64,000 bases of DNA. Origin: Acidobacteriota bacterium. GTDB taxonomy: Bacteria > Acidobacteriota > UBA6911 > RPQK01 > JAJDTT01. The notes under the pieces were generated by a model, which saw nothing but the letters and a program-made list of their open reading frames with translations, was not told the origin of the DNA and searched no databases. The stretch spans positions 3,904,001-3,968,000 of the forward strand of contig OZ253580.1 in the NCBI GenBank assembly GCA_965263035.1, written 5' to 3'. The position numbers and the translations under genes were made by a program. Of this stretch, positions 15,901 through 40,186 are shown one piece after another. Position 1 is the first letter of the stretch, and the number at the start of each line of letters is the position of its first letter.

Positions 15901-17490
15901 CTATTCGATTGCGGCCTCCTTGGCGTGGGTGTACAGCAACTTGCCCTTTTCGTCGTAGAAGGTGAAATCCATGCGAGCCTGCCCCTCGCCGGTCCGGTCG
16001 ATCTTCATGAGCAGGAAACCACCGGTGGGTTCCTCGTAGTGGTAGGGCTGTTTCACTTTTCCCTCGGGATCCGAGGATTTGGGATCGCCCGGAAAGTACC
16101 CGATGATCGCGTTGGCGTCGATCATCGAGCCGACGGAGAATTCCTGGAAGCCGGAGGGGTGGACCGCATGATACTGCCAGTGGCGATCCCCGCAGATGAT
16201 GACGAAGCGTTCGGGAGAGAACTGGTTGTCCGTCAACCAGCGGAAGAAATCGTTGCCTTCATATCGGAATCCACCTGGGTTGATGTGGTTGTCCCGCTTC
16301 GAGCCACTGCCGGGTCCCACCATGGCTGTCGCGGAGAGAAGGACCTTGAAGGTGGCGTCGCTCTCCAGCAGGGTTCGCTTGAGCCAATCCCTCTGTTCCT
16401 TCCCCCAGATCGACTTCCGGGGACCGTCGGGAAAATCGTTGGGGCTGCGGTAGTCACGTCCCTCCACGATCCAGATCTGGAGGTCCCGGTTCACTCTCCG
16501 CGTGGAGTAGGTCACCGTATCGGATGCTCGTGGATCGACGACCGGATACTGTTCCCGGAACATCCGGACCCCCAGTTCGTGGGAAGGAGCGGAGCCGGAA
16601 CCGGAGTGCTTCGAGTAGAGGTTCTCCTTGGGGTAGGCTCCGATCCTGTCCTGGGCATAGACGCGGGCCGGATTGACCGGATCGGAGTCGTTGAACCGGT
16701 AGTCGTGATCGTCTTTCAACCAGTAGGTGGCCACTCGGGCGAACAGATCCAGGAACCTTTGCTGCGAGTACTGCTCCTGGTGCTTCATCCGCAATTGGTG
16801 CTGGGTCTCCGCCCGTCCTCTCATCTGGTGGGCGCTTCCGGGGCCGTCGTAGTAGACGTTGTCTCCCAGACCCACGAAGTAATCGGGCTCCAAGGCCAGA
16901 ATGGAAGCCAGCGCCGGATAGCCCAGCGCCTTGTCCGGTCCGCTGTAGGGCGGTTGGGAGCCCCCCCCGGTGTAGTGGAATTTGCTGTAGTGCATGCAGG
17001 TGGCGAGGGCGAAGCTGTAGGAGACCTGCCCGGTTTCCCCGCCCAGGGTGGTGAATGCCGCCGCCGCCGATTTCTTGAACCGTGACTTGTCCGGTCCATA
17101 GACCAGGCGAAAGTGGTAGCGGGTCTCCGGCCGCAGCCCTTCCACCTTGACCTTCACGATGTAGTCGTTCTCCGGGAGGGCAGCGAGCCATTCAGTCCGG
17201 ATCGAGTTCTTGAAATCAGCCCCGGCCGCCACCTCGAAGCGGGCGATTCCCCCGATGCCCAGGACTCCCGACCAGCGGGGGTCGACGAGGCGATCCGTCG
17301 AGGTGAGACGGGACTGGAGTATCGCCGACGTGTCATCCACGGCTCCCGCCATCAGGCCGTGACCCAGCTCCATGGGAAAGGGATCCGCGGACTGGGAAAA
17401 GCCCGGGGTTCCCAGAGCCAGAAACAGGACCGGCGCGGGGATCCGGGACAGGCGGCCGATCCTTTCTCTAAGTTCCTGGAGACTGATCAT
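15901..17490 (-). CDS. PhoD-like alkaline phosphatase D family protein, copy 1
   Basis: GDNVYYD, KDDHDY, GRDYRS and GDRHWQY motifs; N-terminal signal-like segment. Confidence 0.88.
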   Translation of the reverse strand: MISLQELRERIGRLSRIPAPVLFLALGTPGFSQSADPFPMELGHGLMAGAVDDTSAILQSRLTSTDRLVDPRWSGVLGIGGIARFEVAAGADFKNSIRTEWLAALPENDYIVKVKVEGLRPETRYHFRLVYGPDKSRFKKSAAAAFTTLGGETGQVSYSFALATCMHYSKFHYTGGGSQPPYSGPDKALGYPALASILALEPDYFVGLGDNVYYDGPGSAHQMRGRAETQHQLRMKHQEQYSQQRFLDLFARVATYWLKDDHDYRFNDSDPVNPARVYAQDRIGAYPKENLYSKHSGSGSAPSHELGVRMFREQYPVVDPRASDTVTYSTRRVNRDLQIWIVEGRDYRSPNDFPDGPRKSIWGKEQRDWLKRTLLESDATFKVLLSATAMVGPGSGSKRDNHINPGGFRYEGNDFFRWLTDNQFSPERFVIICGDRHWQYHAVHPSGFQEFSVGSMIDANAIIGYFPGDPKSSDPEGKVKQPYHYEEPTGGFLLMKIDRTGEGQARMDFTFYDEKGKLLYTHAKEAAIE

Positions 17491-17516: not shown

Positions 17517-19104
17517 CTATTCGAGAGCGGCCTCCTTGGCATGGGTGTAAAGCACCTTGCCCTTCTCGTCGAAGAAGGCAAAATCCATTCGAGCCCGCCC
17601 CTCGCCGGTCTGGCCGATCTTCAGGAGCAGGAAACCGCCGGTGGGTTCTTGGTAGTGGTAGAGATGTTTCACTTTTCCCTCGGGATCCGATGAAGTGGCG
17701 TCGCCCGGAAAGTGCCCCAGAATCGCGTTGGCATCCACCAGCGCGCCGACGGAGAACTCCTGGAATCCGGACGGGTGGACGGCATGATACTGCCAGTGCC
17801 GGTCCCCGCAGACGATCATGAACCGGTCCGGAGAGAATTCTTTGGCCGTCAGCCAGCGGAAGAACTCGTCTCCTTCATGTTGGAATCCCCCCGGGTTGAC
17901 GTGGTTGTCGCGCTTGAAGGCGTAGTCGGGTCCCACCAGCGGGGTCGGGGAAAGGAGGACTTTGAAGGTGGCGTCGCTCTCCAGCAGGGTTCGTTTGAGC
18001 CACCCCTTCTGCTCCTTCCCCCAGATCGTCTTCCGGGGTCCGTCGGGAAAGTCGTTGGGGCTGCGGTAGTCGCGTCCCTCCACGATCCAGATCTGCAGAT
18101 TCCGGTTTCACTCTTCGCGTGGAGTAGGTCACCGTGTCTGAGGCCCGTGGATCGACGACGGGAAACTGTTCTCGGAACATCCGCACCCCCAGTTCATGGG
18201 AGGGAGCATGGCCGGAACCGGAGTGCTTCGGGTAGAGGTTCTCCTTGGGATAGGTTCCGGTATCCGACCCGTCATAGATTTGGATGCGGACCGGATTGAA
18301 CGGATCGGAGTCGTTGAACCGGTAGTCGTGATCGTCCTTCATCCAGTAGGTTCCCACTCGGGCGAACAGGTCCAGGAACCTCTGCTGCGAGAACTGCTCC
18401 TGGTGCTTCATCCGCAGTTGGTGCTGCGTCTCCGCCCGTCCTCTCATATCTTGGTCGGCTCCCGGGACGTCGTAATAGACGTTGTCTCCCAAACCCACGA
18501 AGAAGTCGGGCTCCAAGGCCAGGATGGATGCCAGCCCCGGGTAGCCGAGCTCCTTGTCCGGTCCACTGTAGGGTGGTTGGGAACCGTGCCCCGAGTAGTG
18601 GAAGAAGCTGTAGTTCATGCAGGTGGCGACCGCAAAGCTGTAGGAGACCTGACCCGTGCGTCCGCCCAAGGTGGTGAAAGAGGCCGACGGGGATTTCTTG
18701 AACCGTGACTTGTCCGGTCCGTAGACCAGGCGAAAGTGGTAGCGGGTCTCCGGCCGCAGCCCTTCCACCTTGATCTTCACGATGTAGTCGTTCTCCGGAA
18801 GGGCGGCCAGCCATGCGGTCCGGATCGAGTTCTTGAAATCGGCCCCGGCCGCCACCTCGAAGCGGGCAATGCCCCCGATTCCCAGGACGCCCGACCAGCG
18901 GGGGTCGACGAGGCGCTCGGTCGAGGTGAGGCGGGACTGGAGAATCGCCGTCGTGTCATCCACGGCGCCCACCATCAGGCCATGGCCCAGCTCCATGGGA
19001 AAGGGGTCCCCGGACTGGGCAAAGCTCCAGTTCCCCAGCGTCAGGAACAGAGCCACTGCGGAGATTCGGACCCAACCGGTCTGGCGGGTGATTCTGGTGG
19101 TCAT
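17517..19104 (-). pseudogene. PhoD-like phosphatase, tandem copy 2, frameshifted
   Basis: Highly similar to 15901-17490; one extra T near 18106-18108 (ggtttcac vs ggttcac) splits it into ORFs 17875-19116 and 17517-18083. Confidence 0.8.
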
Positions 19105-19148
19105 GACCTCCTCCAAGTCCCGGCATCATAACCGATTTGGGGTGTCTG

Positions 19149-19172
19149 GGAGGGGCGACTTTCTTGTCGCCC
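19149..19172 (+). repeat. REP-like palindrome in the 3' exon of the intron
   Basis: GGAGGGGCGACTTTCTTGTCGCCC. Confidence 0.75.
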
Positions 19173-19460
19173 ACTGGATCGGGTCGGGCGCAGGGGATTG
19201 CGCCCCTGCACCCTCCCACACCACCGGACGTACCGTTTTCAGTATCCGGCGGTTGGAGTCACCCGAGGCTCTTTCGAGCCTCGTACAGGGCCTTTCTTTC
19301 CGGTTTCCGCCGCCGCTGAGACTTGATCTCCGCCCTTCCGGCTTGCCGGGCTCCACCCGTGGGCCTTCCATGCCGGGTCCGAGGGGCCTCCCCCCGCCCC
19401 GTTTTCGGAGGTATTTGCGATCCCGCTGACGAGTCCACCATAGGGCCCGTCCGACTCCTT

Positions 19461-21242
19461 TGGAGTTGACCCGCTTTCGTGGACACATCCAAAGTAGGGG
19501 AGTAAGGAGGGATCCACGATGGCAAGAAAGCAGAGACGGTATCCGCCGGAGTTCCGGCGGGAGATCGTAGGGCTGGTGCGCTCGGGGCGATCGCCGGAGG
19601 CACTGGCGCGGGAGTTCGAGCCCTCGGCTTCGGCGATCCGGAAGTGGGTCAAGCAGGCCGATCTGGACGAGGGGCACCGGAGCGACGGGTTGACGAAGTT
19701 CGAGCGCCAGGAGTTGCGTCAGGCGAGGCGGGAGATCAAGCGCCTGCGGATGGAGCGGGACATCCTAAAAAAAGCCGCGGCTTGGTTCGCCCGGGAGAGC
19801 GACTCGATCCCAGGAAAGGATTCGAGTTCGTAAAGGCGCACCGGGCCCAGTTTCCGATTCGGGTGATGTGCCGCGTGTTGGGTCTCTCCCCCAGTGGGTA
19901 CTACGCCTGGTTGAAACGTCTGCCCTCGAACCGGGCTCGCCAGGACCAGGCGCTTCGGGAAAAGATCGTGCAGATCTGGAACGAGAACCGGAGAGTTTAC
20001 GGTCGGCCTCGTCTGCATGCCGAACTGAGAGCTCGAGGGGAACGGACGAGCCCGAAGCGTGTGGGCCGATTGATGCGGGAAGCGGGAATTCAGGGGGTGA
20101 GCCGGAGGCACCGGAAGGCCGGGCTCACCCGGAGGGACCGGAAGGCGCGTCCCGCACCGGACCTGGTGAACCGGAACTTCGCGGCTGAGGGACCGGATCA
20201 GCTCTGGGTGGCGGACCTGACGTATGTTCGCACGCAGGCGGGCTGGTTGTATGTGGCCGTGGTCCTGGACGCCTGGAGCCGAATGGTCGTGGGCTGGGCA
20301 ATGGAGACCCATCTGCGGTCCGAACTGGTCGAGAATGCGCTCGCCATGGCGGTGATACGGCGACAGCCGAAGCAGGTGATCCACCACTCGGACCAGGGGG
20401 CACAATACACCTCGACGGCCTTCGGGAAGAGATGCCGGGAGGCCGGGGTGCGGCCGTCGATGGGCTCGGTGGGGGACGCTTACGACAACGCGATGTGCGA
20501 GAGCTTCTTCGCGACGCTGGAATGCGAGTTGCTGGACCGTCACCAGTTCCGGAATCCGAATCAGGCGAGGCGGACCGTCTTCGACTTCATTGAGGGATTC
20601 TACAACCGGCGCCGCCGACACTCGGCGCTGGGCTACGAGTCGCCGGTCCGCTACGAGCAGCAGGCAGCGTAGGACCCACGGCGTCGTCGAAACTCGATCC
20701 GGACGACGAGATCCTCGATTCGTGCTCTCGCCGAGTGCAGTGATGACCTGCTGGGGTCGTCTTTCCTGCCTCCAATGCCGGTCCTGCGGGCCGGGAGGCT
20801 CAGAAGGACTGACGCCGCCTCACGAACCGGTTCGTTTTCGCGCTGCTCGACCACGAAGCCAGCACCATCACCGTCGCACCAAGCGTCGCGCGCGACACGA
20901 TTGAAGAGGGCAGGGGGGCGCTGCCCCCCTGAGACCCCCGGATGCAAAGAGATACACACCACTCTTAAATCCCTGGAAAGAAAGCGCCGAGGCCCCCTCG
21001 TTACGCGGTATCCCATTGTGGAAAATCAGAGATTTCCCACAACGTGAGCCCTTTTGCTGACGCCTCCATCAGTCCCCCCACAGAAGAAAGAACGCTCTGT
21101 CAATGGTCAAAACCCTGACATTTTCTATGGCCATTGACATTCAGCGGGAGGAAGTCTTGCTCCCCAACGACAGAAGGAGTATTACAACCTAGACCAACGT
21201 AAACCGCACTAATAAACCGTCCACGAAAACGGGACACCTTCA
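19461..21242 (+). mobile_element. IS3-family insertion sequence (1782 bp)
   Basis: TG...CA ends, TIR TGGAGTTGACCCGCTTTCGTGGAC / GTCCACGAAAACGGGACACCTTCA, 3-bp target duplication CTT (19458-19460, 21243-21245). Confidence 0.93.
19519..20672 (+). CDS. IS3 transposase OrfA/OrfB (programmed -1 frameshift)
   Basis: OrfA 19519-19833 (YPPEFR..ILKKAAAWFA); A7G at 19767-19774; OrfB WVADLTY, HHSDQG, DNAMCESFF. Confidence 0.93.
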
Positions 21243-21592
21243 CTTCGGTCCTTCGCTCCACCGGCATTATCCGGCTTCTTCGCTACTATGACCTCTGCTG
21301 ACTTCTCAAAGGCTCTCACCCTTGAGATCTCCCCGAGTAAGGTGCTGCATCTTTCCCCCCGGGCCGCCCGGCTCTACCTGGTACGTCTGGATGGGGTTCG
21401 GGTTTCGCTGTTGCTCGCCAGCTCACCGCCCGCACCCGGCCTCGCTGCCGGTTCGTGTTCCTGCGGTCGTGGGTTTGCCTTCCGCTTCCTTCAGCTTCAC
21501 CTCGCGGCTACGCCTTGCGGTTCGGCTAGGGTTGGTCCCATCACCTCCCTTGGGATCTTTCATCCCTTAGATACAGCCCATGTCGGGCGCAC

Positions 21593-21744
21593 GAGCGGCG
21601 ACTTTCTTGTCGCCGATTGGGACAGGCGACTTTCTTGTCGCCTGCTCTTCCGTGTTGCTGTGCGAATCGGTGGTGGGAAAGTGTAGAGGTGGGACTCCGT
21701 CCCCCCTACCCCCCCCTGTTCGGCGACAAGAAAGTCGCCGCTCC
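21593..21744. repeat. Cluster of three REP-like palindromes (two direct, one inverted)
   Basis: GGCGACTTTCTTGTCGCC at about 21597 and 21626; inverted CGGCGACAAGAAAGTCGCCGCTCC at 21721-21744. Confidence 0.8.
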
Positions 21745-21814
21745 AGAATTGCTATACTCGCTGGCCGAATCGATTCAAGACTCTGAACGCCGCCCGTCGA
21801 CGGAGGGCGAACGC

Positions 21815-22573
21815 ATGTTGGATCTGAAAAACAGGACCGCCCTGATGGTGGGGACGAAGCGGGTGGGCGCCGTGGTGGCCCGGCGTCTCGCTCAAGCGGG
21901 CGTTCGACTGGCGCTCAGCTACCGGGGTTCCAAGAGTGCGGCCCAGCAGCTCCAGGCGGAGTTGGCGCCGATGACCCGGACCTGCCTGGTCCAGGCCGAC
22001 GTGAGCCGGCCGGAGGACGTGGTCCGGCTGCTGCGAACGGTCCGTGAGGAACTCGGGGACCTCTCCTTTCTCGTCAACCTGGCGTCGGGATTTCCACGGG
22101 CTCCCTTGGAGTCGCTGGACGCGGCTGCTTGGGAAGCGGCGGAGCCGGCGGCCCGGTCCAACTATCTCCTGGCGGTCCACGCCTCCCGCAGCATGCGCCG
22201 AAACCCGGGACCGACCCGGGGCCACATGATTTTCTTCAGCGACTGGGCCGCCGGAGGGACTCCCTATCGGAACTATCTTCCCTACCTCACCGCCAAGGCG
22301 TCTATCGACTTCATGACCCGCGCCTTCGCCGTCGAATTGGCGCCCCACGGCATTCTGGTCAACGCTATCGCCCCCGGACCCACCATGCGTCCTCCGGAAA
22401 TCAGCCTCGAAGATTGGGAGCGAAACGTGATCTCCCGGACTCCCCTCCGCCGCGAATCCGCTGCCGGCGAGATCGCCGAGATGATCGTGACCCTCCTCAA
22501 GAGCGAGACCATCACGGGCGAGACCATCCGCATCGACGCCGGCCGCCACCTGGCGGGTCCGGGCGTGGCTTGA
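21815..22573 (+). CDS. SDR family oxidoreductase (pteridine reductase-like)
   Basis: GTKRVG, NLAS, YLTAK, VNAIAPG, ITGETIRIDAG. Confidence 0.8.
   Translation: MLDLKNRTALMVGTKRVGAVVARRLAQAGVRLALSYRGSKSAAQQLQAELAPMTRTCLVQADVSRPEDVVRLLRTVREELGDLSFLVNLASGFPRAPLESLDAAAWEAAEPAARSNYLLAVHASRSMRRNPGPTRGHMIFFSDWAAGGTPYRNYLPYLTAKASIDFMTRAFAVELAPHGILVNAIAPGPTMRPPEISLEDWERNVISRTPLRRESAAGEIAEMIVTLLKSETITGETIRIDAGRHLAGPGVA

Positions 22574-40109: not shown

Positions 40110-40186
<77 letters not shown>

Follow-up and report, generated by a model that had tools for sequence, protein, structure and literature searches.

The 64,000-nucleotide (nt) stretch of Acidobacteriota DNA analysed here, hereafter the window (contig OZ253580.1, positions 3,904,001 to 3,968,000), contains on its minus strand a group II intron of class C (IIC) that is broken by an insertion sequence (IS) of the IS3 family and has no open reading frame (ORF) for a reverse transcriptase (RT). 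The locus is likely to be one copy of a 630-nt IIC intron whose RT gene was lost once and which then spread to 22 places as a non-autonomous retroelement. Coordinates are those of the window unless another sequence is named, the intron is read on the minus strand, and its domains (DI to DVI) were called with the curated Rfam models at their gathering cut-offs. The features are collected in Table 1.

Three Rfam models passed their gathering scores at this locus. RF02001 (group-II-D1D4-3) matched 21344-21511 on the minus strand with 81.4 bits (E 1e-14), RF01998 (group-II-D1D4-1) matched 21248-21341 on the same strand with 47.2 bits, and RF00029 (Intron_gpII, covering DV and DVI) matched 19178-19254, also on the minus strand, with 40.4 bits for a cut-off of 40. 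These matches, together with the GUGCG 5′ end and the AU 3′ end, are those of a group II intron. The same D1-D4 models were matched when an uninterrupted short copy and one full-length copy of the family described below were scanned. Once the 1785 extra bases (1782 bp of IS and a duplicated AAG) are taken out, the intron measures exactly 630 nt. The exon junction reads GCCGCTC/CCAGTGG, the 3′ exon beginning with the C at 19177.

The original prediction, made from the letters alone, had proposed a GTGCG 5′ end followed by about 350 nt of DI-DIII, a DIV closed by GGAGTC/GACTCC with about 190 nt inside, a short DV starting with CCGCC and carrying a CGC triad, and a DVI followed by a CCGAT 3′ end. 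All these elements were recovered, with the 5′ end at 21592 and the 3′ end at 19178. DIV corresponds to intron positions 350-553 (204 nt, 192 of them between the arms of the GGAGUC/GACUCC helix). The minimum-free-energy fold of the uninterrupted copy recovered both the DV and the DVI hairpins, and the A at 19184 can be read off that fold as a candidate branch point of DVI. The window had also been said to encode no RT. In agreement with this, the motif Y[AV]DD was absent from all six frames of the window, and none of the eight matches of TIGR04416 (the NCBIfam model of group II RT/maturases) in the genome fell inside it.

The intron of the window belongs to class C. Introns of this class have a shortened DV with CGC instead of AGC, and the DV found here is 32 nt long and has CGC under the AGC of the model. 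In addition to the CGC triad, the assignment is supported, on sequence grounds, by the similarity of the RT of the family to the GsI-IIC RT, by the lack of an endonuclease domain in it and by the siting of the intron after a hairpin plus 4 nt. The RT part of this comparison was made on the full-length sister copies only, by structure-database ranking and Pfam.

Copies of the intron and loss of the RT gene

The uninterrupted 630-nt copy was used as BLAST query against the host genome (G000), which is a single contig (C1) of 6.198 Mb. The 30 aligned pieces obtained corresponded to 24 copies and one 51-nt fragment. Both the sister copies and the RT-encoding parent that the original prediction had envisaged were thus present, since 22 of the copies are short (19 intact ones of 630-632 nt and three split by insertions) and the other two are long, of 1848 nt, giving a short to long ratio of 11:1. 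Besides the window copy, the split ones are C1:3067627-3070027, which carries the same IS, and C1:5180457-5185638, into which an IS21-like element and the gene of a large serine recombinase have been inserted and which has lost intron positions 121-264. The surroundings of the latter (C1:5179457-5186638) are a nest of mobile elements with an IstB-like ATPase, an rve/HTH (helix-turn-helix) transposase of IS21-like type and a large serine recombinase of 694 amino acids (aa). Pairwise identity among 20 short copies ranged from 94.9 to 100% (median 97.9%); five of them, at different loci, were 100% identical and two more formed a second identical pair.

Alignment of the long with the short form covered positions 1-528 and 540-630. 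In the short form the RT gene is deleted, the deletion starting shortly ahead of the start codon and reaching the last three codons, and an 18-nt hairpin (GAGGCUC-GAAA-GAGCCUC) closes the gap. Of the RT, the short DIV retains only the stop and approximately three codons ahead of it, and the ~180 nt that precede the joint are located upstream of where homology to RTs starts. The exact joint, GAGGCTCGAAAGAGCCTC, was found in all 20 short copies that were compared and in the two remaining broken ones, that is, in all 22. Because this deletion joint is identical throughout, the comparison of sequences shows that all the short copies descend from one deletion event. Nucleotide diversity among 20 short copies was 0.012 in DI-DIII, 0.037 in DIV and 0.003 in DV; the lower values in DV and DI-DIII than in DIV are compatible with selection on the ribozyme.

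Between the two long copies there are 6 base differences, none of which alters the encoded RT protein. Their open frame has 466 codons and contains YADD; Pfam recognized RVT_1 (E 3e-38) and the GIIM maturase domain in it and no endonuclease domain, and its score with TIGR04416 was 363 bits, for a cut-off of 300. When the protein was compared with the PDB, the GsI-IIC RT was the best match (451 bits), ahead of three other group II RTs (291-346 bits), which we take to be class C proteins of gut Firmicutes, and of LtrA (124 bits) and 6me0 (110 bits). The alignment with the GsI-IIC RT begins at residue 56 of the long open frame, which is also roughly where conservation among relatives sets in. For this reason, the RT probably starts at the ATG of MEQVV (intron position 538). 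The 57 codons before it were considered as an N-terminal extension of the RT and rejected, as they have no protein-level conservation in relatives; they were treated as non-coding DIV. The same genome has a second, unrelated group II intron family (Table 1), whose RT is 33% identical to that of the long copies.

Long and short copies of the host genome are 97.7-99.4% identical in DI-DIII, and one short subfamily combines a DI-DIII 99.4% identical to that of a long copy with a 5′ part of DIV that is only 77.5% identical. Moreover, at five of the six sites that distinguish the long copies, the short copies vary between the same alleles (149, 210, 212 and two matching the short-copy positions 619 and 621). 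The window copy itself is a mosaic, with the 5′ haplotype of one group and the 3′ haplotype of the other. The simplest reading of these patterns would be recombination, gene conversion or template switching among copies.

Relatives were searched for in 40 other genomes of the same order. Sixteen of them gave some match, near-full-length matches being confined to the genus and one other genome (G031), and the short forms across the genus have different deletion joints. Genome G003 has five full-length copies and a short one, which does not differ from the long copies of that genome in DI-DIII and DV-DVI (100% identity) and keeps the first four and last eight codons of the RT in frame as a 12-codon mini-ORF. 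Judged by these features, it is a recent and separate deletion, which would represent ORF loss at an early stage. In G008 (90% complete, 670 contigs), where some eight 5′ and seven 3′ ends of the intron were seen, most of them at the ends of contigs, the short form has a joint of its own and a DIV about 72-75% identical to all others. G000 and G001 share a DIV lineage, 91% identical to each other and 77-80% to the long copies. Since the joints of G003, of G008 and of the G000/G001 lineage are distinct, the RT gene was lost at least three times in the genus. A 41-nt block of DIV common to long and short forms was absent from all of 80 distant RT loci with up to 8 substitutions allowed, so that it is specific to the genus. 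An RT-binding structure in the 5′ part of DIV was also considered. The consensus fold of eight sequences was plausible, but only 4 pairs changed on both sides, which was too little, and this candidate was rejected.

Landing sites and strand of the copies

The 5′ exons ended in CCGCTC in all 24 copies of the host genome and the 3′ exons began with C in 23 of them. An inverted repeat directly preceded GCTC in every copy, one repeat being degenerate as read by eye. In 17 cases the sequence before the intron was the exact consensus GGCGRCAAGAAAGYCGCCGCTC, whose hairpin part is GGCGRC-AAGAAA-GYCGCC, and the other seven copies follow a different or imperfect hairpin, also read by eye. The genome has 92 sites with the consensus target, 17 of them filled and 75 empty, and C is the next base in all 75 empty sites. 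The 18-mer of the hairpin is found 170 times, in 19 cases preceded by a second hairpin, GGGGACTCCGTCCCC, with which it forms a composite repeat of ~60 nt. One further hairpin copy lies in the window at 21625-21642 (minus strand).

A stem-loop followed by a short intron-binding site 1 (IBS1), as expected for class C, was thus found. The site does not correspond to a Rho-independent terminator, as would also be expected for the class, since the window site lies between divergent genes and no T-run follows the hairpin in the copies, the bases that come next being CCATT, CCAGT, CTGTT and similar. Because of the missing T-run and of the repetition of the hairpin 170 times, the landing site is, from its sequence, a repeat similar to repetitive extragenic palindromic (REP) sequences and not a terminator. 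Hairpins other than terminators, such as attC, are used by other IIC lineages (PMC3001079), and a group II intron of Pseudomonas putida was found at REPs in 2 of 9 copies (PMC1525189).

Pairing between exon-binding site 1 (EBS1) and IBS1 was compared among species. GAGG in EBS1 is accompanied by CCTC in the exon in 8 of 8 copies of G001, G003 (five long and one short) and G008, and in G004 GAGC is accompanied by GCTC. This EBS1/IBS1 switch across sister species is a clean compensatory change, and it shows that the pairing of EBS1 with IBS1 determined where the copies were inserted, the short as well as the long ones.

The cumulative GC skew of the host genome was lowest at 2.86 Mb and highest at 5.84 Mb, and dnaA is located at 2.872 Mb. 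Taking the origin from these data, 20 of the 24 copies are co-directional with the fork, that is, lie in the template of lagging-strand synthesis (binomial p 0.0015, to be read as indicative only). Exact targets were filled in 14 of 33 co-directional sites vs 3 of 59 opposed ones (Fisher p 2e-5, likewise only indicative), and the empty ones are mostly opposed to the direction of replication (56 of 75). The window copy is one of the four strand exceptions. The bias of the copies is the preference for the lagging-strand template that is stated for class C introns in PMC8919778.

Known systems and mode of spread

ORF-less introns are rare in bacteria and nearly always accompanied by a related RT-encoding intron in the genome (PMC4424553, PMC3245105). 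A genome survey described an increase of ORF-less introns in certain genomes (PMC8919778). The classic example is Thermosynechococcus elongatus, for which Mohr, Ghanem, and Lambowitz (2010, PMC2882425) give 17 ORF-less (TeI3) and 8 ORF-containing (TeI4) introns of the CL/IIB1 type with one shared deletion. As in the family described here, many ORF-less copies with the same deletion break-points stand beside fewer ORF-containing ones, the ribozymes are closely related, and these authors propose one proliferating ancestor and a trans-acting RT as driver. The present family differs from it in being of class C, without endonuclease domain and with one hairpin-type target, and in its short to long ratio of 11:1 vs about 2:1.

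HYERs (hydrolytic endonucleolytic ribozymes; Liu et al., Science 2024) are described in 10.1101/2024.08.31.610620 and PMC12990946 as ORF-less IIC introns of about the size found here. They are defined by sequence-specific hydrolysis of DNA or RNA without protein, and the agreement with the 630-nt intron concerns size and class only; the present intron differs in having a near-identical RT-encoding partner in the same chromosome. Thus, the opinion of the original prediction that ORF-less bacterial introns are uncommon agrees with the reviews cited above, but has to be qualified for class C, for which such introns are now described in these sources.

With GsI-IIC, B.h.I1 and O.i.I1 the family shares a small ribozyme with the CGC triad, an RT nearest to that of GsI-IIC, insertion after a stem-loop, a 4-nt IBS1, a 1-nt IBS3 and the preference for the lagging-strand template. 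Unlike it, those introns encode the RT within DIV and are inserted behind Rho-independent terminators, whereas the hairpin used here is REP-like and has no T-run. Finally, as in miniature inverted-repeat transposable elements (MITEs) and short interspersed elements (SINEs), the short derivatives, which have no gene, are more numerous than the autonomous partner and retain what the enzyme of that partner needs; the difference is that here the ribozyme would find its target by base pairing and only the copying step would be borrowed. A literature search on non-autonomous ORF-less group II introns gave no direct match. All in all, the kind is already known from the Thermosynechococcus family and the HYERs, and the family of this genome is an unusually clear example of it. 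Its distinctive traits are the 11:1 ratio, the REP-like landing sites, the switch of EBS1/IBS1 across species, the repeated loss of the RT in the genus and the polymorphisms that the helper shares with the dependent copies. One chromosome supplies target rule, strand rule and helper, and therefore constitutes a compact natural system. The family raises the questions of which is the minimum class C RNA for movement in trans, how an RT-free ribozyme lineage originates and persists, and whether RNAs of the HYER type are by-products of such families.

The short copies have no ORF in DIV and share a single joint, and a related RT-encoding intron is present in the genome, as expected of a non-autonomous intron moved in trans. 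In the reading that we prefer, the RT from the two full-length copies would bind the excised short RNA, this RNA would reverse-splice into single-stranded hairpin sites with GCTC/C at replication forks, and the RT would copy the inserted RNA into DNA. The window copy was hit later by the IS3-family element at the base of DIV. From the original prediction of a non-autonomous IIC element of roughly 630 nt moved in trans, the size, the class, the family and the helper were found as such, and from them we infer the mobilization in trans and the present-day activity of the short intron. It is conceivable, although we advance it with reserve, that the short intron, whose DIV is shared with G001 and differs by 20-22% from that of the long copies, is an old separate lineage rather than a recently crippled form, a partner of the autonomous intron comparable to that of SINEs with long interspersed elements (LINEs), with arms kept matched by repeated exchange and with the REP-like hairpins at forks as landing field. 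Within the same proposal, the three or more RT losses might suggest, with a similar degree of doubt, that parasites reduced to a ribozyme, or HYER-like RNAs with their own activity, arise readily from class C introns.

Other origins of the copies were weighed against this trans-mobilization. The original prediction had named as its main alternative a one-off deletion relic, with degraded RT codons in DIV and no other ORF-less copies. The window copy is broken and lies beside an apparently frameshifted gene, as would be expected of a relic without later spread, but this explanation is refuted by the 22 copies at different loci with an identical joint, five of them 100% identical, and by an RT remnant of about three codons and a stop. 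Spread of the copies as DNA, as passengers on the REP-like hairpins through recombination or a repeat-specific transposase, would agree with the fact that the hairpins form a repeat family, the 18-mer occurring 170 times, and with two weak matches to Y1-transposase elsewhere in the genome (39 and 36 bits). Yet the shared sequence is bounded exactly by GTGCG and CGAT in 24 of 24 copies, the flanks past the hairpin are unrelated, and seven copies are located at other hairpins which, by eye, have in common only the stem-loop shape and GCTC. As the covariation of EBS1 and exon between species and a strand bias like that stated for class C retrohoming also stand against it, we regard this route as very improbable. 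Mobilization by the RT of the second group II family is no more credible to us, despite the three full copies and one split copy of that RT/maturase, which reach 317-318 bits with TIGR04416: the 33% identity between both RTs is low, an intron RT is as a rule specific for the RNA of its own intron, and it is the intron of the cognate RT that shares 97.7-99.4% of DI-DIII with the short copies.

The short intron could also be a protein-independent ribozyme similar to the HYERs, which cuts or reverse-splices into single-stranded hairpin DNA or RNA and would be retained for this activity or spread without the cognate RT. The length given for HYER1 in the same two sources (10.1101/2024.08.31.610620, PMC12990946), 637 nt, is near the 630 nt of this intron, and HYERs are ORF-less IIC introns as well. 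DV is almost invariant among the copies, the joint is trimmed to a neat hairpin capped by GAAA, and G001 retains a short copy without a cognate RT. However, fixing a copy in DNA requires reverse transcription, and among the complete genomes examined a large family of short copies was seen only in G000, where the cognate RT is present as well, while G001, which lacks this RT, has a single copy. As the explanation of the family we find this activity unlikely, and it could coexist with mobilization in trans.

Several observations weigh against the spread with the aid of the long copies. G001, which is 99% complete and in one contig, has one short copy, and its best match to the long-copy RT is only 36% identical; in G008 no match to this RT was found at E <= 1e-20. 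Both genomes indicate that the short form can persist without a helper. The first ~180 nt of DIV are the expected RT-binding region from what is known of other introns, and precisely there the short and long forms are only 77-80% identical. Activity without protein has been reported for HYERs (10.1101/2024.08.31.610620, PMC12990946), and the short intron may have such activities too. The strand p-values come from copies that are related, and so are not independent events, and from an origin that was itself inferred. Exchange among copies could also produce the low diversity of DV and DI-DIII that was related above to constraint. Finally, only the window copy, among the three scanned, reached the RF00029 cut-off for DV/DVI, and by a narrow score (40.4 vs 40). 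Because this cut-off was reached in one of three copies, surveys by RF00029, like those by ORF, can miss such families.

Transcripts were looked for in assembled (Logan) contigs of four runs (X14, X15, X18 and X1), a comparison in which depth and contig ends were uninformative. In one 150-nt contig of the metatranscriptome X18 the exons are joined precisely; its 5′ part covers 29 nt, which belong to a repeat, and its depth is 2.6, below the reliability bar, so that it is at most a hint. It may come from spliced RNA or from a strain with an empty site, and the intron present in X18 differs at several bases from the genome copy.

Insertion sequence and neighbouring genes

The IS that breaks the window copy has inverted ends of the form TG...CA (19461-19484 and 21219-21242) and is flanked by a 3-bp target duplication, AAG (19458-19460 and 21243-21245). 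Beyond orfB it extends for about 570 bp, where a 121-aa ORF is found on the other strand (20651-21016) that had no Pfam match. The insertion took place at the first base pair of the helix that closes DIV, and DIII and DIV are now 1.8 kb further apart. Because the IS separates both domains at the base of this helix, the window's own copy of the intron is probably dead or no longer active. The genome contains ~10 full copies of this IS3-family element, 97.8-100% identical, and two of them are located inside copies of the intron, at different intron positions. Since the intron makes up about 0.3% of the genome, these hits look non-random, or they may be insertions that were tolerated.

Table 1. 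Features of the intron locus and related elements of the host genome (window coordinates, or contig C1 where indicated).
Feature	Positions	Strand	Evidence or remark
Group II intron, IS-interrupted	19178-21592	-	Rfam models and motifs
Intron positions 1-350: 5′ GUGCG, domains I-III	21243-21592	-	Rfam D1D4-3 and D1D4-1; 100% identity with other copies
DId stem-loop with EBS1, loop GCGAGCAA	21407-21422	-	GAGC complementary to exon GCUC
Remainder of domain IV, intron 351-553, no ORF	19255-19457	-	Fold and ORF inspection
Deletion joint hairpin GAGGCUC-GAAA-GAGCCUC, within DIV	19265-19282	-	Sequence and fold
Domain V, 32 nt, starts CCGCC, CGC where model has AGC	19221-19252	-	Rfam alignment
Domain VI	19181-19218	-	Rfam and minimum-free-energy fold; intron 3′ end ...CCGAU at 19178
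5′ exon target: hairpin GGCGAC-AAGAAA-GTCGCC (21597-21614) and GCTC = IBS1 (21593-21596)	21593-21614	-	Directly precedes intron
Further hairpin copy in 3′ exon, then CCTC rather than GCTC	19154-19171	-	Sequence
Empty exact target (hairpin and GCTC, next base C)	21722-21743	+	Opposite strand, 130 bp from intron
IS3-family insertion sequence, 1782 bp	19461-21242	+	Inverted ends, transposase domains; splits intron after position 350
IS orfA, HTH_Tnp_1 domain	19519-19833	+	Pfam
IS orfB, rve integrase core	19644-20672	+	Pfam, NCBIfam (358 bits to IS3 transposase model)
Other IS copies in C1	33273-35055, 335678-337458, 2263592-2265372, 3067892-3069672, 3654979-3656759
Other IS copies in C1, continued	5239137-5240918, 5410148-5411929, 5833455-5835235		Plus one spanning contig ends
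Second-family intron RTs in C1, full	5537513-5538613, 983769-984869, 5842098-5843198		TIGR04416, 317-318 bits
Second-family intron RT in C1, split by ~2.2 kb	5053504-5056830		TIGR04416, 317-318 bits

The intron and its IS are located ~60 bp upstream of the start of a gene for a PhoD-like phosphatase, in a gap shared with a divergent short-chain dehydrogenase gene (21617-22573, plus strand). The PhoD-like gene is one of two tandem paralogues on the minus strand (15901-17490 and 17517-19116). The one directly after the intron consists of two overlapping ORFs of 413 and 188 aa and is apparently frameshifted near 18083, and the downstream one is intact (529 aa). No match to rRNA was found in the window. 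A tRNA gene is present at 40113-40186 on the minus strand (Rfam, 75 bits), and its anticodon loop, CUGAUAA, suggests tRNA-Ile(GAU).

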